Origin: Yuukianura sp. NJ FZ-2021
Lineage: Eukaryota
Length of the DNA: 64,000 nt
Reading direction: 5' to 3'
Assembly: GCA_046563655.1 (NCBI GenBank)
Contig: CM102286.1
Span: forward strand, 14,942,001-15,006,000
The notes beneath the pieces were generated by a model, which did no database searches, was not told the origin of the DNA, and was given only the letters and a program-made list of their open reading frames with translations. Position numbers and translations under genes: made by a program. Positions 24,140 through 63,733 of this stretch are shown piece after piece (position 1 is the first letter of the stretch; each line of letters begins with the position of its first letter).

Positions 24140-24421
24140 CGAGACTGGAAATAATTAATTGTTCAATTAGTCGATTAATTGCTCAATTAATCGATTAATT
24201 CCCCCGGGACTTGCCACTAGTAGTGGCTACAGAGTTGAAAATCTGATTTTTTTATACCTTTTATGCTACAGTATTTAAAAAAACTAACTTTTTTGTAGTT
24301 GTACCGCGACAATTTTTAAATTAAAACGTTGCCTGGGTTACAGTATTTGTTGCAATAATGCGATTTAGAAATTTTAAATTTTCGCGGGTCGTCGGTGGTC
24401 GGACTGACCGAAATCCAAATC

Positions 24422-25968
24422 ATGGCTGGACGTTCAAGTAAAAAACTGTTTTGTATCAAGTACCTTTGTTGTTTATGCATTGAACTTCCGCAGCATAAGA
24501 CACTTTTCCGGTACGACATGATTGAAGAGCTGGACTCAGCTGTCCAGGAACTCTATGACCAAGAAAACTCGGAATCTTTTCTTAAAAAGTACTTAACTCC
24601 CGGAGTGTACAACACTATGAAGTATCGACAAACCTACGAAGGAAACACACTGCTCGAAGTCATTATCTCAGGAACGAAGAATCCCGACAGTCTCTTTGGC
24701 GTCTACGCTCCAGATCCCGAATGTTACCGAACGTTTGGAGAGCTCATGTACCCCATCATATGTGCCATCCACTTCCTACCGAACATTGTGTCTCATCCAC
24801 GCAAAATCCGGTTCGGACCGTCCGACTTCCTCACATTTCTGGACATGGAAGATCGATATGTCAAATCCATCCGATTCGAACTTTCGCGGAACATTCTCGG
24901 ACACAAGTTTATTCCATCCATGACCAAAGTGGAGTTACAAAATCTGCAGGGGATTCTGTCAGCCCATTTTCAAAGTTTCAAAAGGTCGGACTTGCATGGT
25001 CGTTACGTTCGGTACAAAGGTTTGGAGGAACACACGGAAAAAGTGCTGACGAACCTTGGTCTCATGTTTCCAGCAACTGACAAGTTCCTGGAAGATGGAC
25101 TTGGACGAAAGTTCTGGCCAATGGGTCGTGGAATCTTCATTCCAGGCAAGGTTCCTTGACAACCGAATTGTAATCCCTACAACAGGTTGTCCAATGACGC
25201 AATCTTCTGCACCAATCCCATTTACATTACATGCAAAAGATTACCATTTAAAGACAGATTTGCTATTTTCAAACAAATTTTAAAGGTTCCAGTTATTAGA
25301 CAACCTGGTGTAGAAAAAGTGTTTATTTGTTTACGAACCTTGATTCCAGGGGCCATGGACTTTGCCATTTGGGTCAACGTTGAAGATCACCTCAAGTTAG
25401 TTGCTTCAGAACGATCTGGAGATTTCAAAAAGTGTTACGAACGATTCATTCAACGTAAGAAATTAAAAAAAGGAATCGATTAATTGAGTTGGTGACTAAG
25501 ATTTTTGTAATTTCAGTACACAAGAAGCTTCATCGTCGATTCAAGTTTCATTTTGATGAGCATTTGGGCTATGTCAATGTTTGTCCAAGTAACCTTGGAA
25601 CAGGAGTTCACGCTGAAATTGAGTTAGAGTTGCCAATACTCCAGCGTCATCCAGAACTGATTCAAAAGATTTGCAACGAGTATTGGTTGTCTACGCATGG
25701 ACATGGAGGAGAACACTCCAGCATGACTCCAGAGTCAACATTTTTCATCCGCACAACTCGAGCTCTTGGAATTGACGAGTACAACACGGCCATGCCAGTT
25801 TATGAAGGAGCCTTGGAATTACTCGTGACGGAGCAGCGATTCTCCAAGGAGCTGAGAAGACTGCAAATGGAAGGAGCTGGACTCGATTCGGTAGGCCTTA
25901 ATCTGTTCCCAAAAGACGCAAAAATCAAACCAGCTCATCCTTCAAAACATGTCCATTTGGCAATGTAA
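24422..25968 (+). CDS. Divergent arginine/phosphagen kinase-like protein
   Basis: SFLKKYLTP, GVYAPDPECY, FWPMGRGIF, WVNVEDH, HLGYVNVCPSNLGTG, GGEHS. Introns at 25146-25349 and ~25455-25516. Confidence 0.85.
25147..25342. mobile_element. MITE with CAAGGTTC/GAACCTTG termini and perfect 8-bp TSD (ATTCCAGG), forming an entire intron
   Basis: TSD at 25139-25146 and 25343-25350. Subterminal inverted repeat CTACAACAGGTTGTCCAATGAC / GTTATTAGACAACCTGGTGTAG. Related copy at 46338-46558. Confidence 0.85.
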
Positions 25969-27788: not shown

Positions 27789-29605
<1,817 letters not shown>

Positions 29606-30357
29606 ATTACAATTTCTCAATTAACCCCAATTTAATTCATGTAAGATATTCCAAAAACTAAATTAAAAATTAACTAATTGAAGTGAACAAATTGACTTTG
29701 TCTTTTCTTTTTGAAGTTTTAGCTTCCCTCTTATCAGTCGTACGTGACTTGTTTTACAGTTTTTTGTCTGGCGGTTGCCTAATCCTGTGACTTCTGTGAC
29801 CGGCCACTTTTAATTGATTCTTGAGCCTAAATGTCTGCTGAAGTCAAAGTTTTTAAGTGGAACTAAATGGTCCATAAACTTTGAAGCTCTAAGCATACGA
29901 GGAAGTATATGCTTTGTAGAACTAAAACATTTATCTTTAGACACTTTAGTTGTTTCCCATTCATTTTCCGTCCTTAACATCTTAACATTGACACATCAAA
30001 GATAAGAAAGTGACGACTTTTGAAAATTAGTTCACAGTAAGCACTCTTTTCTCCTTTGGTCTTCGACGGCTGAGGTCACGTAGGCAAAAGACGCTCTCAA
30101 ATTAAGCATTTTAGAGTAAAGTTTTTAGTCATTTCAAAAATTCTACAACACAGAAACGCTCTTAAATTTTGAAACTCGCGATTTCTGGACACAAAATCAC
30201 TCCAAATTCATCGTGGCCTCGAGCCGACACATCAGTAGTGTTCAGGTAAGCAAAGATTTTTTAAATTCTAGATTCTTTTTCAATTTCTGATTTTGTCGAA
30301 TTCGGATTTTCAAAATGTAGTACAAAATGTATTTTGAAATTCCAGATTCAGCATTGG

Positions 30358-31323
30358 ATGAGCTTGGAGAAGATGGAACTCGGAAACTCGCCGATAGATG
30401 GCGCTGATACCGAAATTCTGTTTCACGGCATTCCGATTTCTCAGTATTCCCTTTCGGAAACTCAAATTGTCCAGAATCTGGACTCTCCTGATTGGCTGCT
30501 GCGCAAACTCCTCTTCTTCGGCAGTGCTATTGCGTCAATCAGAGATTTAGAACACCTTGTTCCTGGTCCAATTGCAAATACAGTTTTCGGATCCCTCGTA
30601 CTTCTCGTCCGTGAATTTTACAAGTTAGACGAATTCCAAATTCGCTCAATTCTGACAAATCCGGGGATTAGTCGGATCCGACATTTAGTCATTTCAAATT
30701 GTGGTTCAGCCGAGTATTTTCTAGAAGCTTTCTACGCTGCTCGCATAATTTCTGGCGAAATTCTTCTGGAAGAGTTTCCTTATTATGAAAACTACCAACT
30801 TCTAATGTCATTTGAATCTAAATGTCTCCAAGCTTACATCGGAAGTTCCAAATACCGGGAAATTTCAAATGTTGCGTTCATCGGTTCAGGGCCACTTCCT
30901 CTGTCTTCAATTGAGCTGCTCCAGCATTTACCCCGAGGGGCAAAGGTCATGAACTTTGACCTCTCCGATGAAGCCATTGCTCTTGGAGAATCTATCGTCC
31001 GACTACAAAATCTCTCTCATCGCATCTCATTTTCAAATGCTGCGGCACTCGAAATCCAAGATTTGAAGCATGTTGATGTTGTCTATTTAGCAGCTCTCGC
31101 TGGTGGCTCCAATTTCGAAAAACGCCAAATTACGGAACATTTACACAAAATTATGAAACCGGGATCTGTGCTGGTTGCAAGAAGTGCGAGTGGGCTAAGA
31201 TCTTTCATCTATGAAAAACTAACGGAATCTGATTTTGGCAAATTCAAATCTTTCCGCCATTTTGATCCCACGAACAAAGTCATCATCAACTCAATTGCAG
31301 TCGGAATGAAACTGGATTTTTAA
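30358..31323 (+). CDS. Nicotianamine synthase-like protein (intronless CDS, probable 5'UTR intron 30247-30345)
   Basis: Motifs FPYYENYQLL..FE, VAFIGSGPLPLSSI, DVVYLAALAG, K..I..HL.K.MKPGSVLVARSASGLRSFIY, VINS, all typical of the NAS family. Confidence 0.88.
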   Translation: MSLEKMELGNSPIDGADTEILFHGIPISQYSLSETQIVQNLDSPDWLLRKLLFFGSAIASIRDLEHLVPGPIANTVFGSLVLLVREFYKLDEFQIRSILTNPGISRIRHLVISNCGSAEYFLEAFYAARIISGEILLEEFPYYENYQLLMSFESKCLQAYIGSSKYREISNVAFIGSGPLPLSSIELLQHLPRGAKVMNFDLSDEAIALGESIVRLQNLSHRISFSNAAALEIQDLKHVDVVYLAALAGGSNFEKRQITEHLHKIMKPGSVLVARSASGLRSFIYEKLTESDFGKFKSFRHFDPTNKVIINSIAVGMKLDF

Positions 31324-34300
31324 TCAAAATTTTCAAATTTTAAAATGTAAAAATTCTTTTGTAAATTCTTTTACTTTGGTCTTTTGTAAAAGTGAAATGC
31401 TCATTTTTAGAACATCTTTTGAAAAAGTGTGGGTGATTTTGAAATTGTAGAGAAAGAATTTGAGTGTTGAGACGTTTGTAAATCCTTATGTAATAAAAAA
31501 GCAATTTCATTGAGAGTCTATAAACAAGAAAGACTATATAAAAAGACTATATTTATTGTAGAGCAGACGCAGTTTCATAAGGTTACACCGAAAATCGTCC
31601 ACCGTCATTTCCTCACCGCACACTTTTCTCTTTAAATGAGGCAATAAAAAGTCCAATAGCATCACCAAAAATTCACATCACACCCGCACTTCACTCCATT
31701 TCCATTTCAAATTTCAAATTTTGGAGCCAAAAAACCATTTTGGCACCAAAAAGACACAAAAAGTACAACATTCAAGCCGAGGGATTTTAGAAAACTGGAG
31801 CCGATTTACAATTTTTCTTCACCTTCCACAATTCCTTTAAAATGTTCAACTTTTTTTTTGAAATATCAAATGTTCAGGGGTTTAAATTTTTGTAAAATTC
31901 AAAATTTGGGATGGTGTTGAAAATCGGGCTTGACGAATTGATGATCTGAGTCACGTGTCGTTTTGTTGCTCTTTTTGGCGGGAGTTTTTGTTGTGTTTCA
32001 AATGCAGGGTCATTTGGAGGCTAATTAAAGGCTGTGGCACACTCCAGTGGAAATCAACAACCAAATTATCATTTTATCAATTGGAATCTGTTGCCTCTAC
32101 ACACTCCACCAAACTCAAATTCAAAAAGAGCGGGAATCTGTGCCCGGAGAGAGGGAAGGAGTGACAGGGGCGAAGTGAGACTGGAGCGGAAGTATTCCCG
32201 GGAGACTGCGGGAGTTAATAGGTTTTCCTTTGATTCCTTTAAATATGTTCGTGTGCCTGTTCTTTAATTTGTACGAGGGAAGAGGGTTCCCTTGGTGATC
32301 ATTTGGACAAATCATGGTTGGGTTCCTTGATTCATAATAATTAAAGATCTCTTCCCCAGCACATCCCAAGTGGATTCCACAATTCAAGGACTGAAGCATT
32401 CTGTCCAGTAGTCTTATCGTGAACGGAGTTCTGGAGAACCTTTCAATTTCGGATCAAGATCTCCCGCCGAAAATAAACTGAATAAACTTTAGGAACTACT
32501 CTACAAACAACGCAGATTAAACTAACATTAATTGGATTCCAGTTTTAGTTGAGAAGAATTTCTTCGCGGAGAAAAAAAAATTCACGCCGCGAATCTCGTG
32601 TGAAGCAGCCTTAAGCTTAGAAGATATTCAAAACATTCTTATCACAAAATTTTCAAACTTAACAAAATTATTTTTTTTAGGTTCGTGAAATAAAATTTTG
32701 ACTTGCCATAATTGACTTTCACCGTGAAATGAGTCTCTAAGCTATCAATTTCTATGAGTTTTTGGAAATTAAACCACTTATTACGACTTATGGCGATAAA
32801 ATTTTGTGTGGCGGTAAAATTTGAAATCCACTTAAAATGATTACGTTCTGGTTGTGTTTTGGTAGAGAGAGACATTTAGTCTGGTAATTATAGCCACAAG
32901 GACAAAAGTCATTTGAAGTAGGGAAAGTCCAACTGTTGGATTCCACTTTCTCCTCCGCCCCACAATCTGTTCCGTATTAAACACTTAAGGCTCAAATCTA
33001 ATTTAAATGTAAATAACAGTTTTCTCCTGTGATTGTCACCCCTCTCCAGATTATCCCCTCAACCCAATGTTATCCCCCTCCTCCAACCCAACTTGTGTTC
33101 TTCCAAAGAACTCCGCCTCTGATAAAGAAGGACGACAGACGACATCACATCATTTTATCACACCCAAGGGAATCCATCACCCTCCCCCTTCTCTCCCACT
33201 GCATCGCACCACCGAATACCCGCTAACTCAAAAAACCCGCCAAAAAACTGAAACGAAAGTCAAAATTCCCTTGACTTTTAAACAAGAAGTGGAGGGGGAG
33301 AATTATGTGAAGCAGAAGTTGAACTTACGGCGGAGTTTCTCCCCTCATGAGATGGATTTTTGATGATTCGCGGGCGGGAGAGAATAAGTTAAACTTGACT
33401 TTTTCTTTTTTTGGTTGTGGTGATCCCCTGCTAAAGGTGGATTAGGAGGCATATGCTGTGCCTTTACTAAATTTTTGTGGTGGTGGACTTATGCCCTTAA
33501 GTGCCCCCTAAGACTTCATGTTGGTCACGCCTTTTTCCATGTCACAAAAAAGGAATTCGGAGAAGAGAAAATTGAGAGTGGAAAGCGAGCTTAACAGACA
33601 TTTGACAGGATTGTTCTTTTTGTAGTTTCAAAAGCATTTGTTTGTAAAAAAAAAACCACTTTTGTATACTTTAATTTTTTGAAAAAAGTAGTTTGCTGTA
33701 TTTTTGTATTAGGTTGAGATGTCTGATTACTTCTGAAGTTAAGGAAGGATAACAAGAGGGGCCTCAATTCGTTACAGTCTTGTGAACAATGAAAATTGAG
33801 ATCATAAAAACACTATTTGGAGGAGCAAAACGAAACGAACAATGTCTCTCTCTTCTTCTTTCAAAATTCAGTAATTACAATTTCAAAAAAAAGCAACTTC
33901 AAATTTTGAATTCCTTCGGTCATTCACCTAGACGACTTTGACAATGTGAAAGTCACAAACCTTTCGGATTTCAAAGAAAAGAATTTTTTAGAGTATGAAA
34001 AGGGAAAAGTAAACTTAACAAAACGGAATTTTTTCTCGGGAAGTCTTGTAGTAATAACTTTTTTTCTGAAATTTTGAAAAAGTTGCTTGAAGATTTTCTC
34101 GTTTCTGTTTTTCTGCAGTTTGGCATTGAGGTAAAAGTTGCAATATGAGAGCTAACTGTTATGAGAGGTGAGATAATTGCTTAATAATTGAGCAATTGAC
34201 ACAATTGTTTGCAATCAAAACTGAATTGGCGTCGACAGTTTTATGTAGTTTTAGTTACAGCGTGTGAAAAGTGGAAAAAGTGAGAGATTGTAAAAGCTGC

Positions 34301-36198
34301 TACAGAGTGAAACTAAGGTTTGAGAAAGTTGAAGTTACAGTTAATGTAAAAAGTGGTAGGTTTGTGTGTAAGGTTGGAGTTGAGTAAATTGTTGTGGTTG
34401 TAAACATGTCTGAAGTAAAAGTTTGTGTATGTTTTTAGTGTGTTGTTTCCAATTTGAGTTGTAGTTGATAAAGAATTCATTCCCAGAAGCCCTTGCTGCT
34501 CCAAGGGTCGTGGACAGAGAAAGCTTAGAAAACTTTCACTTTGCTTGAAAATCACGCATGTGGAACTCAGGAGGAACGAAGGGAGGAGACACTTCGATCG
34601 ATTCAACCTCAACCTGTCCTAGGCACAGGGTAGCAGCTACAAAATAACTACTTACATAGTTACTCCCTCCAAAACACAAATCTCACAATTTACAACACAC
34701 AACACAAAAAACTTACACCTGAGGTTTAAAAATTTCCCAAATTTCATGTTTATCACAATTAGTTACTCCCTCTAAAAAAAAATTAATACAGAATACATTG
34801 TATAATGGAAAAGCAGTTTACTGTTAAATTGACTTCTTCACATAACAATGAAATTGTGGAATTTCTGCTGAATAGTTATTCCCTCCAAATAACTTTTCTG
34901 TCTGAAGACTTATTAATGTATCGCGAAAAATAGAAACGAGAAATTACAAAGTCGCACAATTTTAAAAACTTTAATTGAACCTTGGAGAAAAGTTTTCATC
35001 AAAGTCAATGTTAGTAAGTTTTAAGTGACACGGCATGCTTTCCAAAATTTGAAAATAACCTTGCACTTTTGAAAACAAGGTCAAAGTAAAAGTCAAAACA
35101 CAAAAATTCCCACGACTCTTCAGTTTTGTTTTAATTTTCAAAATTTCGATTATAAATTGTTTTTCATTTTTGAATTTGAGATCTACTTTGAAATTCTTTT
35201 CCCTCTTGGTTTCTTGACATTGAAAAATAAAAGAGAGCGGGGAGATGGAGTAAATAATTGAGCAGAAGTTTTGAGTTTAATCACGAAATGAAAAGCTGCT
35301 TTTCTTATTTGTTTTAATTTCAAATTCAAATTTTGAAATGGCCGCCACAGTCGTGCCTCTCTAACAAGCAGGCGGAATGATTTCAACTTTTCTTTTTTAA
35401 TTTTGGTTTCGTGCTAAAAAGTTAGTTTTGAAAGGCCCGCCTCCTCCTTCGATGGAGAAATTTGGAAATTAAAAATTCAAATAATTACTTCGTTTCAAAT
35501 TCATCAAATTAAGGCTGGTGCTCTCCTTTTTCAAATCCAAAAGTTTCAAACATGTCCATGTTTTTTGAAAATCCTTTAAAGCTTTTGCGTGTCTATTGAT
35601 TAAACTCAGTCAATGTCCATGTCACAAAATTACACTAAAACTCCAATCAATATCAAACAGATGCTTTTCAACACTTCAAAATTTCACTCATTTCAAATTT
35701 TTTTTGAGTTGCCGCCATTCCACTTTTGAATTTTTTTTAAAACTACCGCCATTAAGGCAGACTTGACCCTCATTTTAAAATTTTAGTAATCGGAAAAAGT
35801 TTGAAACTCGGTGCAGCACTTTTTTTTTTGAAAATTTTGAATAATTTATTGGATTGCTGACGACAAAAACCGAATTGGTTTCAAAAAACGTAATTTCTAA
35901 AATTCTTGAAGAAAACACGCTTATTACAAGTCAAATTCAGCAGCGACGACATTTTCTTAGTTTTTCAAAATTCTGGATTTTCATTTACGGAGGTTGGAAT
36001 TTGTTTTTCGAAATAAATAAATTTTGAAAGGGGGATTTTACGGTTAAAAGTTTTCTAAAATTACACGCCCTCAAATAATTACACGTTTTTTGGAATGAAA
36101 AGAGATCAAAAGTTTCTTGGGATTTGCTTACGCATACAACCGTTTAACTAAAAGTTGTTGATGATGTTGGTGTTGATGAGTTTGAGTGTTGATGGAAT

Positions 36199-39083
36199 TC
36201 ACTGTTTGAGTAAATTGTCAATACTGAAATTTAGGTTGAATTTGGATTTGTTCTTTTTGGATTTGGACTCCAACTCCTTTTTCAGTTCTTCCAAATTTAT
36301 TGTTATGCCACGAGCAGACAGCTTCGCTGCTTGCTTCTCCAGATTCTTACGGAGCTAGCAATGAAAAATCAAAATTCAAAATTTGGAAATTCCTTGATTT
36401 TCCAAAATGGGTTTCAAAATTTTGTAGTTTTCCGTACTTTTACCTTTCTCTCTCTGCGTAGCTTCTCTTTGTGTTCCAGTTCATCTGGAGGAATTGGTTC
36501 TCCAGAGCAAGTCTGCGGTTGTGAGTTGTGTGCTGGACGGCCAGGGCCCTTCTTCGTGTGTTCCCGCTTCCGCCATTTTGCTCTCCGATTTTGAAACCAA
36601 ACCTTTAAAAAAACCGGGCATTACAAAGTGTCACTAGGGTTGTTCAAGTTCCGTTCCGTTCCGGTTTCACCGAGGAACGGAAACGGTACTGCATGAACCG
36701 GAGTTTTTTGAAAATGGACGGAACTAGTTTAAAAATTGGGAAAAGGAAACAAAATGAAACGGCACCGAAAGTTCGTTCCAAAAAAATGTGGAAAGGGAAA
36801 CAAAACGACACCGGAACGAAACGGAAACGGAACAAAAAGTTTGTTTCCAAAATACGTGGAAACGGAACCAACAGTTCATTTCCAAAAAATGTGGAAACGG
36901 AAACGAAACGACACCTGAAATAAGTTCCACGGAAACGAAACGACAAGTGAAATAAGTTCCGTTCCGTTTCTGGCAACGGCACTTGACCAGCCCTAGTACT
37001 CAAAGTGTAAATCCCTATGTTGAAGTTATGTTGGCCTAACCTAATGCCACTCAATCTAATGACAATTTATTAAGGGCTTTGGGAGATGAAGCCCCAATTG
37101 CTTTGGAATCCCCGGGGAGTAGAGACTCCCTGGGCCTAAATCCCCATTTCAAACGCTCTCAAAAGCACCCACATTCTCACACTCTCTGTAATTATCAAAT
37201 TCATTTTGGGGGGAGTTTTTAACTTTAAAAAGTGTTTTTTAACTTACAGCCACTCTAGATTCTTTGAGATTGAGCCTAAGCGCGAGTGCCTCCCGCATGA
37301 AGACGTCTGGGTAATGACTCGTGAGAAAAGCCCTCTCCAGTTCGTCCAACTGCCACGTCGTGAAGTTCGTTCTGGAGCGTCGTCTGTGATTGGGTGGTGA
37401 GTTGGTGTCGTCTGATTCGTCATCGGAATGACTTCCGGTAGTGTCGACGGACTTGAAGAGATTGATGAGGTTGAAGGAGAGGGGGTTGGGAGGGGCGGGG
37501 GGCGAAGGGGCAAGGTCATTCGAGGAGTCTTCGTTGGAGTGACTGTTCCCTAGGTGATGGTGGGGGTGGTAGGACTTGAGAGGGGGGTGGGGGGCAGGAG
37601 GTGGCTGGGCGGGGGACGGGGAGCCACCACCTCTCACGTGACTCAGCCCTGTAAACACAAAAATACACTTTTTACAACTCTCATTCCACAGAAAAATTCA
37701 AAAAAAAAATCCATTTTAAACACTTGATTTAAAAAAAATAAAAATACACTTCATATAATTCTCAGTCCACTGAGAAAATCCATTTTTAGACACATTAAAA
37801 AAATACACTTTGTACAATTCTCATTCCATATAGAAATATTTCAAAAAATTAAGGTTCGGTGAACTTTAACTTTTTTTAAAATTTGGTTTGAAATGGAAGT
37901 GTAATTCCACGAATTACTTGCAATTTCATGAACAATTTAAAATTCAAGTAATTACTTTGACACTTGGAGCCCTTAATTGCCCGAAAATCATTGCTTTCTA
38001 AATTTCTTAGTTTATAATTACTTATTATTGGAAAGTCAATTAAATGCTAAAGTCATTAAGATGAAGAGTGTTAAGTGTGAATTTCTTAATTACTTTTCCA
38101 CTCACTCCATGATTAATGTCGCATGATGATTGATGCCAGGTTAGCTTACTTTCACATTTTGTTCAAAACATCACTTTTTTTTCAAAAAGTTTTTGTTTTT
38201 TAAAACTAAAATATGAGATTGAAAGTGTAGGAATGTTAAGAAGCGGGGTTTGTGCTAAGTTTTTGTGTGACCTTAATGACCCTGGACTGAAATGAAATTG
38301 ATTCAGTTGTCTAAATTAATTGAATTTCCAATTACTTGATTCGGGTTTGAAATGAAGTTGATTGTAAAAGTTCCATATTTTTTGTGCTGTAAATATGTGA
38401 GACTTTTGACCCTGTGAGTACAAAAACCGGTTTGGAGAGATGGAGGGAGTAACTATGCAATGTTTCTTCTTCTCTGTATTCCATCGTAATTATGAGAGTA
38501 AATATGATTACTTTAATTACGAGATCGATGACAACCTAATAGGGTTCCGCTTTTAACAAAAACTAAGGTTCAAATTCACAATTTAGAGAATCTACGAGTT
38601 AATTGAACTTTTAACGCACGTCAGATTTTTAGTCACACTCTGACTATACTTTTCCACCTGACGAATCAGAAAACTATTTTTTAATTACTCTATTAAATCC
38701 TAAATGTAATTTACTTCTAGATGGCGAAAAATCTCTAAACTTCTTTTTCCAAAATTTTGTTCGAAATCAACCCTTGCAACCAATTTAACATTAAACCAAT
38801 ACAATAAAAAAGCTTCTTTTTTTTCATGTCGAAAACAAAACCACGGCTTTCTCCGAACCTCAAAATTCTAAAATCACAGTATTTGCTTTCCTGAATTCCA
38901 TAAAAATATGAAAATTGATTAAAACAAGTTTTTCAGGTTTCAAAATTTTAAAAAATTACCATTTTCCTCTTGTTGTACGAGTACTTTTGGGCTGAAGTTG
39001 CGTACCATTCCAGAGGTGAGGAGGTGAAAGTACGGGAGGGAAGTTGACTTTAAATAGTCACTCAACTTCATCCTCTCGTTCAT
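36199..39083 (-). CDS. unc-4: Paired-like (Q50) homeobox protein of the Unc-4/Uncx family
   Basis: Exons ~39083-38960, 37648-37249, 36601-36444, 36355-36199. Homeodomain [23 protein letters not shown]...[11 protein letters not shown], followed by the [19 protein letters not shown] signature; C-terminal eh1-like FSIDNLL. Confidence 0.9.
36635..36995. mobile_element. MITE (hAT-like TAGGG termini) in an unc-4 intron
   Basis: Imperfect TIR TAGGGTTGTTCAAGTTCCGTT / AACGGCACTTGACCAGCCCTA; internal GGAAACGGAAC motifs; no clean TSD seen. Confidence 0.7.
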
Positions 39084-46277: not shown

Positions 46278-62333
<16,056 letters not shown>

Positions 62334-63056: not shown

Positions 63057-63733
63057 ATGAATTTGCGACTTTTCACTTTAGTATATTTTTGTGTGACTGT
63101 GTCATTTAATACTGGAAACGCCGGTAAGCCTAATTTTTTTTCTCCAAATTTTTGAAAAACGGCTAAAATTTCATAAAATGTTTTATTGTAGGGTACACTG
63201 GGCCGATGACATTGGCAGGGCTAAACTTGGTGAAAGAATTTGAAGGTTTCCGGGCCAACTTCTACCGAGATTCAGCAGCAAGACATTTAAATTATATTTA
63301 ATTATACTTTTTAATAACATATAATTAATTATATTTTATTACATTTTGTAGGGAATTCGTACAATTGGTTATGGACATGCGTGTCACGTGGGAGACAAAT
63401 GTGATGGAATTAAGGCTCCGATTTCAAAAGAATTTGGGAGGGACGCAACTTCTCAGTCAAGATTTGAAAATTTTCGAAAACTGTGTCAACCGAAACGTGA
63501 AATTTCCAAATCTGAACGACGCTCAATTTTCAGCTCTTGTTTCATTTTCGTTTAACCTTGGTTGTGGATCGCTACAAAAATCGACACTCTTAAAACTCTT
63601 GAATGCTGGAAAAACAAAAGAAGCGAGTTTGGAATTTAAAAAGTGGAATCGCGGCGGAGGAAAAGTTCTGCCTGGCCTCGTGCGACGACGTGAAGCAGAA
63701 CGTCAACTTTTTTGTTCAAAAGGTGGCTGCTGA
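63057..63733 (+). pseudogene. Secreted GH24 (phage-type) lysozyme, 3 exons, frameshifted by a 4-bp duplication in this assembly
   Basis: Exon 1 63057-63123 is a signal peptide. Exons 63192-63277 and 63352-63733 give EFEGFRANFYRDSAGIRTIGYGH (E-x8-D-x5-T) and LNDAQFSALVSFSFNLG...KWNRGGGKVLPGLVRRREAE. GGGA is duplicated at 63436-63443. Confidence 0.85.

Follow-up and report, generated by a model that had tools for sequence, protein, structure and literature searches.

Gene content of the locus

The window analysed here (a stretch of 64,000 nucleotides, without any N) carries one gene of the nicotianamine synthase (NAS) family, which lies between the 3' end of a proteasome-subunit gene and a homeobox gene. 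The following features were annotated:

28718..29605, + strand: last two exons of PSMC2 (26S proteasome regulatory subunit 7), with Pfam AAA and AAA_lid_3 domains and 93-98% identity to animal orthologues
30246..30345, + strand: putative 5'UTR intron of 100 nt, or an acceptor alone as trans-splice site (GTAAGC ... TTCCAG, at the level of motifs only)
30358..31323, + strand: NAS-family CDS (protein P0001), 321 codons and stop, single exon, PF03059
36414..37697, - strand: paired-class homeobox gene, two homeodomain exons (37242-37697 and 36414-36620), 3' end facing the NAS gene

The stop codon of PSMC2 and the ATG of the NAS gene are separated by 752 bp. The PSMC2 exon at 29198-29602 shares 92-98% identity with animal sequences of many phyla and 64-80% with those of plants (among the best 120 of 7305 matches listed); two opisthokont entries reach 93% as well, so that this exon by itself is no proof of an animal. 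Downstream, the homeodomain is divided after position 46 and resumes at 36414-36620. Its PDB matches at E <= 1e-5 number 23 and include aristaless, ALX4, Paired, CRX, Pax3/6, PHOX2B, PRRX2, OTX2, PITX2, goosecoid, DUX4 and ceh-37, all of which we take to be paired-class; paired-class homeodomains are animal-specific. The NAS gene is physically set among animal-type genes, as the sequence-only reading of this DNA had stated when it named PSMC2 and unc-4 as its neighbours; the former name stands, and the latter is kept here as a presumed unc-4-like gene.

The 89 stop-to-stop ORFs of at least 90 aa outside the NAS locus (from 91 listed in the window) were scanned for domains, and ion-channel exons, an F-box gene, a histidine-phosphatase exon, a phosphagen kinase, a further kinase exon, a WNK kinase with OSR1_C and CCTL2 domains, and a phage-type lysozyme exon were recognised. 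None of these 89 ORFs was recognised as a nicotianamine transporter or downstream enzyme, and none had a CntM-type opine dehydrogenase domain.

Coding sequence and 5' signals

The NAS reading frame opens at 30265 and runs unbroken from a first ATG at 30358 to the stop codon at 31321-31323, encoding 321 aa (ORF list, standard code); the intact NAS-like ORF of about 321 aa with no coding introns that had been read from the letters is thus borne out. Since the frame opens at 30265, an in-frame upstream coding exon is unnecessary, and the start methionine is matched by the three orthologues with full N-termini (P0002-P0004; alignment A1). As for the 5'UTR, a donor motif (cag|GTAAGC, GT at 30246-30247) and an acceptor motif (TTCCAG|, AG at 30344-30345, 12 nt 5' of the ATG) can both be read from the sequence, so that the GT-AG intron proposed earlier keeps its two motifs and has its start corrected by one base.

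In base composition the gene resembles its host: GC3 is 0.40 (host exons, 0.37-0.63), with an RSCU correlation of 0.29 (host exons, 0.21-0.56). No second NAS copy was found in the 64-kb window (tblastn with P0001 as query; next match at E 0.078), no transposon-like flanks were seen around the gene, where the repeats consisted of short AT-rich matches only, and no Rfam match at E <= 0.1, hence no iron-responsive element or known RNA, was obtained in 29600-38500.

Conservation of the locus in a second species

A metagenome scan with the alignment of close relatives (clade X, see below) returned 39 loci, among which one contig, L001 (3396 nt), is the sole close relative. It carries one long ORF, whose product (P0002) is 65% identical to the NAS protein of the window, and an acceptor-like TTTCAG about 30 nt 5' of its own NAS ATG, which would fit a cis intron and trans-splicing alike. 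In a blastn comparison with the window, L001 gave eight HSPs, seven of which are collinear: one in the coding region (68% identity) and six in downstream non-coding sequence (81-100%). The remaining HSP lies elsewhere in the window (E 3.5e-4); it is weak and was regarded as chance. The six conserved non-coding blocks are:

31479..31526, + strand: block 1, candidate 3'UTR or poly(A) region, 81% identical to L001, AATAAA at 31492
31633..31683, + strand: block 2, 51 nt, 100% identical to L001, AATAAA at 31643
32010-32097, no strand assigned: block 3, 86% identical to L001
32212-32357, no strand assigned: block 4, 81% identical to L001
32961-33045, no strand assigned: block 5, 91% identical to L001
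33110-33175, no strand assigned: block 6, 81% identical to L001

Because of their AATAAA signals, blocks 1 and 2 may be part of the NAS 3'UTR; blocks 3 to 6 may be regulatory elements of the adjoining homeobox gene.

Over 314 aligned codons of the two NAS genes, pS is 0.79, i.e. saturated, and pN is 0.245. These values indicate that the two species diverged anciently, that the NAS protein is under purifying selection, and that the downstream blocks are constrained. Linkage to host genes, which would be expected of a resident gene together with the same locus in a relative, is given by PSMC2 and the homeobox gene, and the same locus with six conserved blocks is found in L001. The saturated pS, the low pN and the synteny with L001 show the NAS gene to be old, resident at its locus and selected, and not a contaminant; an intact, selectively maintained NAS-family gene is resident in this animal genome.

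Family assignment and predicted structure

P0001 matches the Pfam NAS family (PF03059) at E 7.6e-49 with 166.9 bits (cut-off 27.1), over residues 59-319 and profile positions 17-272 of 276, which is far past chance level for a profile match. The best generic methyltransferase model in Pfam is Methyltransf_31, with 28.1 bits, and the NCBIfam equivalog model for CntL (NF033601) gave 36.7 bits, far below its cut-off of 350. The nearest solved structures by single-sequence comparison are the archaeal thermonicotianamine synthase MtNAS (E 1.6e-6) and CntL (E 4.6e-5); a profile of 14 sequences against the PDB gave 1.1e-20 and 1.3e-6, respectively. Matches of residues 107-172 to unrelated PDB chains (E 0.3-0.8) were sub-threshold and were taken as chance.

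An AlphaFold2 model of P0001 (90-row alignment) has a mean pLDDT of 95 and a pTM of 0.92, and shows the N-terminal helical domain and the Rossmann-type SAM-binding domain of the NAS fold. The Foldseek top ten in the PDB are all MtNAS or CntL chains (target-normalised TM 0.63-0.84); the TM to target is 0.78-0.84 for MtNAS, 0.63-0.75 for CntL, and only 0.35-0.52 for generic methyltransferases. Residues 21-58 form an N-terminal segment ahead of the Pfam domain, which is clade-specific and confidently folded in the model. P0001 reaches its C-terminus at profile position 272 (of 276), so that the autoinhibitory tail found at the C-terminus of class I plant NAS is missing.

An ordinary methyltransferase is ruled out by the Pfam scores (28.1 against 166.9 bits) and by the low TM values, and the grouping with an ordinary animal methyltransferase family, which had been named in advance as the outcome that would speak against the NAS assignment, did not occur in profile or fold. 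P0001 is a true NAS-family gene product.

Active-site residues

E123 of P0001 aligns with E81 of MtNAS, the residue changed in the E81Q crystal entries, and Y146 with MtNAS Y107 (HMMER alignments). The residues G176-S-G178-P-L-P-L and D201 are present and conserved in P0001, and presumably bind SAM, as in other class I SAM enzymes. Invariant in all 90 aligned relatives, the bacterial ones included, are E119, E123, Y146, G176 and G178.

Mutagenesis of AtNAS1, as reported in the accessible part of Seebach et al. 2023 (PMC10248798), found E77 and Y106 to be essential, and likewise E73 and the loop 206-VGMD-209, which set plant NAS apart from microbial NAS-like enzymes and whose deletion inactivates AtNAS1. 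By motif reading of alignment A1, which held no AtNAS1 sequence, E123 and Y146 correspond to AtNAS1 E77 and Y106, and E119, at a site near the reaction chamber, to E73, where MtNAS has G77. The loop equivalent to VGMD has the same length in P0001 and reads AGGS; MtNAS has a four-residue gap there, and fungal sequences vary at this position too. E119 and this loop are also found in an actinobacterial relative (Pseudonocardia, P0047; alignment A1) and so do not prove nicotianamine synthesis; the invariant residues, being shared with bacterial relatives, are needed but not diagnostic for it.

Relatives and phylogeny

A word-indexed protein search returned 47 matches, comprising seven proteins at 42-65% identity, plants at 33-38%, fungi at 29-35%, and an actinobacterium at 28%. 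None of the 13 matches that carried an organism name was from an animal, and none of the 47 was named as Folsomia. An exhaustive HMMER search gave 895 matches at E <= 1e-3, only nine of them at E <= 1e-30; the top match in prokaryote genomes was an Acidimicrobiales MAG (39% identity). A protein-atlas search with the NAS protein returned only generic NAS clusters (plants, fungi, bacteria, archaea), and the 20 pattern matches in viral contigs included no relative.

A first tree was calculated from 102 rows (23 clade-X or named sequences, 14 others, 46 representatives of at least 240 aa from among P0053-P0099, and 19 of 80 prokaryote loci); fragments, representatives of lower rank and 61 loci, mostly of methanogens, were left out. 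The window protein falls in an 11-row clade, termed clade X (SH-aLRT 100), whose stem measures 1.04 substitutions per site. In a careful IQ-TREE search with 66 rows, after removal of 36 long-branch or near-duplicate rows, clade X was recovered with support of 100/99 and a stem of 1.13 substitutions per site, as sister to all of the other 51 rows (plant, fungal, actinobacterial and unlabelled), which are joined with support of only 67/61. Clade X falls within none of the plant, fungal and actinobacterial NAS clades. The AU tests, for which the groups were all chosen after seeing the tree, gave the following:

clade X with the plant clade: p-AU 0.338
clade X with the eudicot subset only (nesting within flowering plants): p-AU 0.014
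clade X with the actinobacterial clade: p-AU 0.074
clade X with both fungal clades: p-AU 0.054

No supported nesting of clade X in a donor clade was found in the 66-row tree or by the AU tests. By its sequence, the window NAS is a member of a distinct, old lineage of the NAS family.

Comparison with known systems

With plant and fungal NAS (PF03059; AtNAS1 and the core-only class III NAS of fungi and moss), the window protein shares the NAS profile over its full length, both catalytic residues (Glu and Tyr), a further Glu (AtNAS1 E73, by motif reading) and the motifs FPYYENY and GSGPLPL; like the class III enzymes it has no C-terminal tail. It differs from them in its identity of only 33-38%, in forming a separate, long-stemmed clade, in AGGS for VGMD, in its clade-specific N-terminal segment, and in its animal host. 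MtNAS (PDB 3fpe and related entries) and CntL of the staphylopine pathway (PDB 7c9m and related entries) are the top structural matches of the predicted model, which has the same two-domain fold and Glu/Tyr positions; however, the window protein is only about 15-21% identical to them, MtNAS has Gly at the E119 site and is without the four-residue loop, and CntL is set apart by the unreached equivalog cut-off and by a CntM-type partner, which was not found in the window.

In animals, the whitefly Bemisia tabaci carries an angiosperm-derived NAS, BtNAS (Bta04871), which is described by Dirick et al. and given as 63% identical to plant NAS in the accessible portion of Gilbert and Maumus 2022 (PMC9599486), and for which a part in metal nutrition is proposed. 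The window gene is likewise an NAS-family gene in an animal genome. The whitefly gene nests in flowering plants in the published accounts, whereas the window NAS is 33-37% identical to plant sequences and its nesting among eudicots is rejected; a whitefly-like origin inside flowering plants is accordingly set aside (p-AU 0.014, for a group picked after the tree and a tree that held no whitefly sequence). By these sequence comparisons, the window NAS would represent an event independent of, and much older than, that of the whitefly.

A putative NAS entry in GenBank for the springtail Folsomia candida is mentioned in Sci Rep 2019 (PMC6934671), the accessible portion of which also describes a Zn-containing ion from the slug Arion whose mass fits a Zn-nicotianamine complex, and states that NAS function had never been shown in animals. 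The Folsomia entry resembles the window gene in being an animal record annotated as putative NAS, and was compared by its description only; in the searched text of the supplements of the Folsomia genome paper, neither 'nicotianamine' nor 'PF03059' nor the accession occurs. A 2026 preprint (10.64898/2026.08.27.747422) mentions Metazoa in an NAS tree, in its accessible part with no species named. Our literature search, which covered supplementary tables only in part, returned no animal NAS beyond the whitefly gene and the springtail mention. The premise of the sequence-only reading, that NAS is not part of the standard animal gene set, needs some qualification: both NAS in an animal by gene transfer and the NAS family itself are already known, and the window NAS is read as a new, independent animal case.

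Predicted function

We consider it probable that the ORF encodes a functional, core-domain-only enzyme of the NAS family from a gene resident in the animal genome. SAM would be bound in the Rossmann-type domain, as in plant and fungal NAS; the conserved Glu/Tyr pair would transfer 3-amino-3-carboxypropyl (aminobutyrate) units, with release of methylthioadenosine; and the enzyme would yield nicotianamine or a compound chemically very near to it, which may bind Zn, Fe, Ni and Cu in the cytosol. If nicotianamine itself is made, each molecule would take three SAM and set free three methylthioadenosine. Such a product is likely on account of the conserved residues, and a physiological role in metal binding may be inferred from it.

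The foremost alternative, which we hold to be unlikely though still to be reckoned with, is that of an NAS-like aminobutyrate transferase with a different product, thermonicotianamine-like or opine-precursor-like, made from another amino acid. The sole solved relatives, MtNAS and CntL, do make different products, the VGMD loop is not kept in sequence, and two plant NAS proteins are without detectable nicotianamine synthesis in the accessible part of Seebach et al. (PMC10248798); the long stem of clade X (1.04-1.13 substitutions per site) and its confidently folded N-terminal segment (residues 21-58) point the same way. Against this reading, E119 stands where MtNAS has Gly, the four-residue loop that MtNAS lacks is present, and in overall sequence P0001 resembles plant and fungal NAS (33-38% identity) more than MtNAS (about 20%). 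A CntL-like role is likewise disfavoured, by the CntL equivalog score (36.7 bits against 350) and by the lack of a CntM-type domain among the 89 ORFs scanned.

Origin of the gene

For the nicotianamine synthase proposed here, entry into an ancestor of the animal lineage would have been long ago, most likely by horizontal transfer from a microbe or fungus; the gene would then have gained host composition and host-type flanking signals, and purifying selection would have kept it. Membership in the NAS family, embedding among animal genes, conservation and selection of the locus as seen with L001, and host-like composition all fit a long-domesticated gene. Of the domesticated, horizontally transferred gene suggested by the sequence-only reading, the long domestication thus agrees with these findings, and the transfer is suggested by the patchy distribution of NAS only: the phylogeny set the 11-row clade apart from plant, fungal and actinobacterial NAS and singled out no donor clade. 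From that patchy distribution alone, horizontal acquisition is inferred as the most economical origin.

Without transfer, the gene would descend vertically from an ancient eukaryotic or opisthokont NAS that was lost in most animals. Clade X does lie in no donor group and is sister to all 51 remaining rows, the AU test speaks only marginally against its union with fungi (p-AU 0.054), and the gene is old, as follows from the saturated synonymous sites. We nevertheless regard vertical descent as improbable, since it would require very many independent losses, none of the 13 organism-named matches (of 47) is from an animal, surveys give, in their accessible parts, a scattered distribution with the whitefly alone among metazoans, and the NAS CDS is intronless amid intron-rich host genes.

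An assembly chimera or contaminant, i.e. an NAS gene of a co-sequenced microbe or fungus misjoined to animal DNA, is hardly credible: the junction of PSMC2 and NAS is known from this window alone, but in the independent contig L001 an NAS orthologue is followed by about 1.9 kb of the conserved non-coding sequence that lies downstream here too, GC, GC3 and codon usage agree with host exons, the flanks are AT-rich and eukaryote-type with AATAAA signals conserved in L001, the window is free of N, and the runs listed for this stretch (five, all of DNA, from two studies) contain 32-67% of the sampled words from 28700-32000 (a test of presence only, and one study is possibly the source of the window). 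The argument against contamination that had been drawn from the flanking animal genes is thereby upheld, and is extended by the synteny with L001, purifying selection and host-like composition.

Possible implications for metal chelation in animals

Nicotianamine has a central part in the metal transport of plants, whereas animals are generally regarded as obtaining it only with their food. The NAS gene described here would have a different and much older origin than the whitefly case, and two species with saturated synonymous sites both retain it intact in matching surroundings; if this holds, metallophore chemistry has been supplied to animals by gene transfer more than once. Judged from its sequence, this animal lineage may produce its own metal chelator, with consequences for metal tolerance and ecotoxicology, and the gene is a clean candidate for showing biochemically, for the first time, that an animal makes nicotianamine itself.

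Only tentatively do we put forward the wider and rather doubtful reading that clade X as a whole is an NAS lineage confined to animals, which was acquired a single time, in the distant past and apart from the whitefly event, and that it provides an endogenous nicotianamine-type ligand in a whole animal group. If so, a poorly sampled group of animals would handle Zn, Fe and Ni partly via a plant-like small-molecule chelator, and this might account for the stray nicotianamine-like Zn complexes reported in invertebrates.

Other predicted genes in the window

Two further ORFs of the window were compared with databases. The F-box/LRR-like ORF matched generic fungal protein clusters below the level of recognition and was set aside as uninformative. 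The phosphagen-kinase exon gave 12 matches, the best named of which are insect arginine-kinase-like (33-38% identity); one other match reached 56%.

Conserved sequence flanking the nicotianamine synthase gene

31479-33175: six non-coding blocks, 81-100% identity to L001, a metagenome contig with an orthologue of the nicotianamine synthase (NAS) gene
30331-30357 (170-215 in L001): region with an acceptor-like motif

Synonymous sites of the NAS CDS are saturated between the window and L001, yet the six non-coding blocks downstream of it retain high identity, and one of them (51 nt) is 100% identical. The blocks are without Rfam match; they could represent elements of the NAS 3'UTR, or else enhancers for the adjoining homeobox gene. 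Upstream, both NAS orthologues carry a strong acceptor-like TTTCAG/TTCCAG 12-30 nt 5' of the start codon, a motif that could mark spliced-leader trans-splicing instead of a cis intron.

Other features of the window

63167-63730, + strand: GH24 phage-type lysozyme (muramidase) gene
24359-25965, + strand: divergent phosphagen (arginine-kinase-like) kinase
49518-51548: AT-rich satellite, 23-bp unit, about 87 copies, 90% matches

The lysozyme gene was identified by matches to Pfam (Phage_lysozyme, E 2.6e-31) and to GH24 muramidases in PDB (about 1e-23). Its coding sequence is split into three segments in different reading frames, at about 63167-63301, 63352-63440 and 63440-63730, so that introns appear to be present. 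This is a second bacterial- or phage-type gene within one animal window.

The best named relatives of the phosphagen kinase are insect 'arginine kinase-like' proteins of only 33-38% identity, while one unnamed metagenome protein is 56% identical. These values suggest that databases of named sequences cover the lineage of the host poorly. The composition profile of the window falls to a GC of 0.125 due to the satellite.
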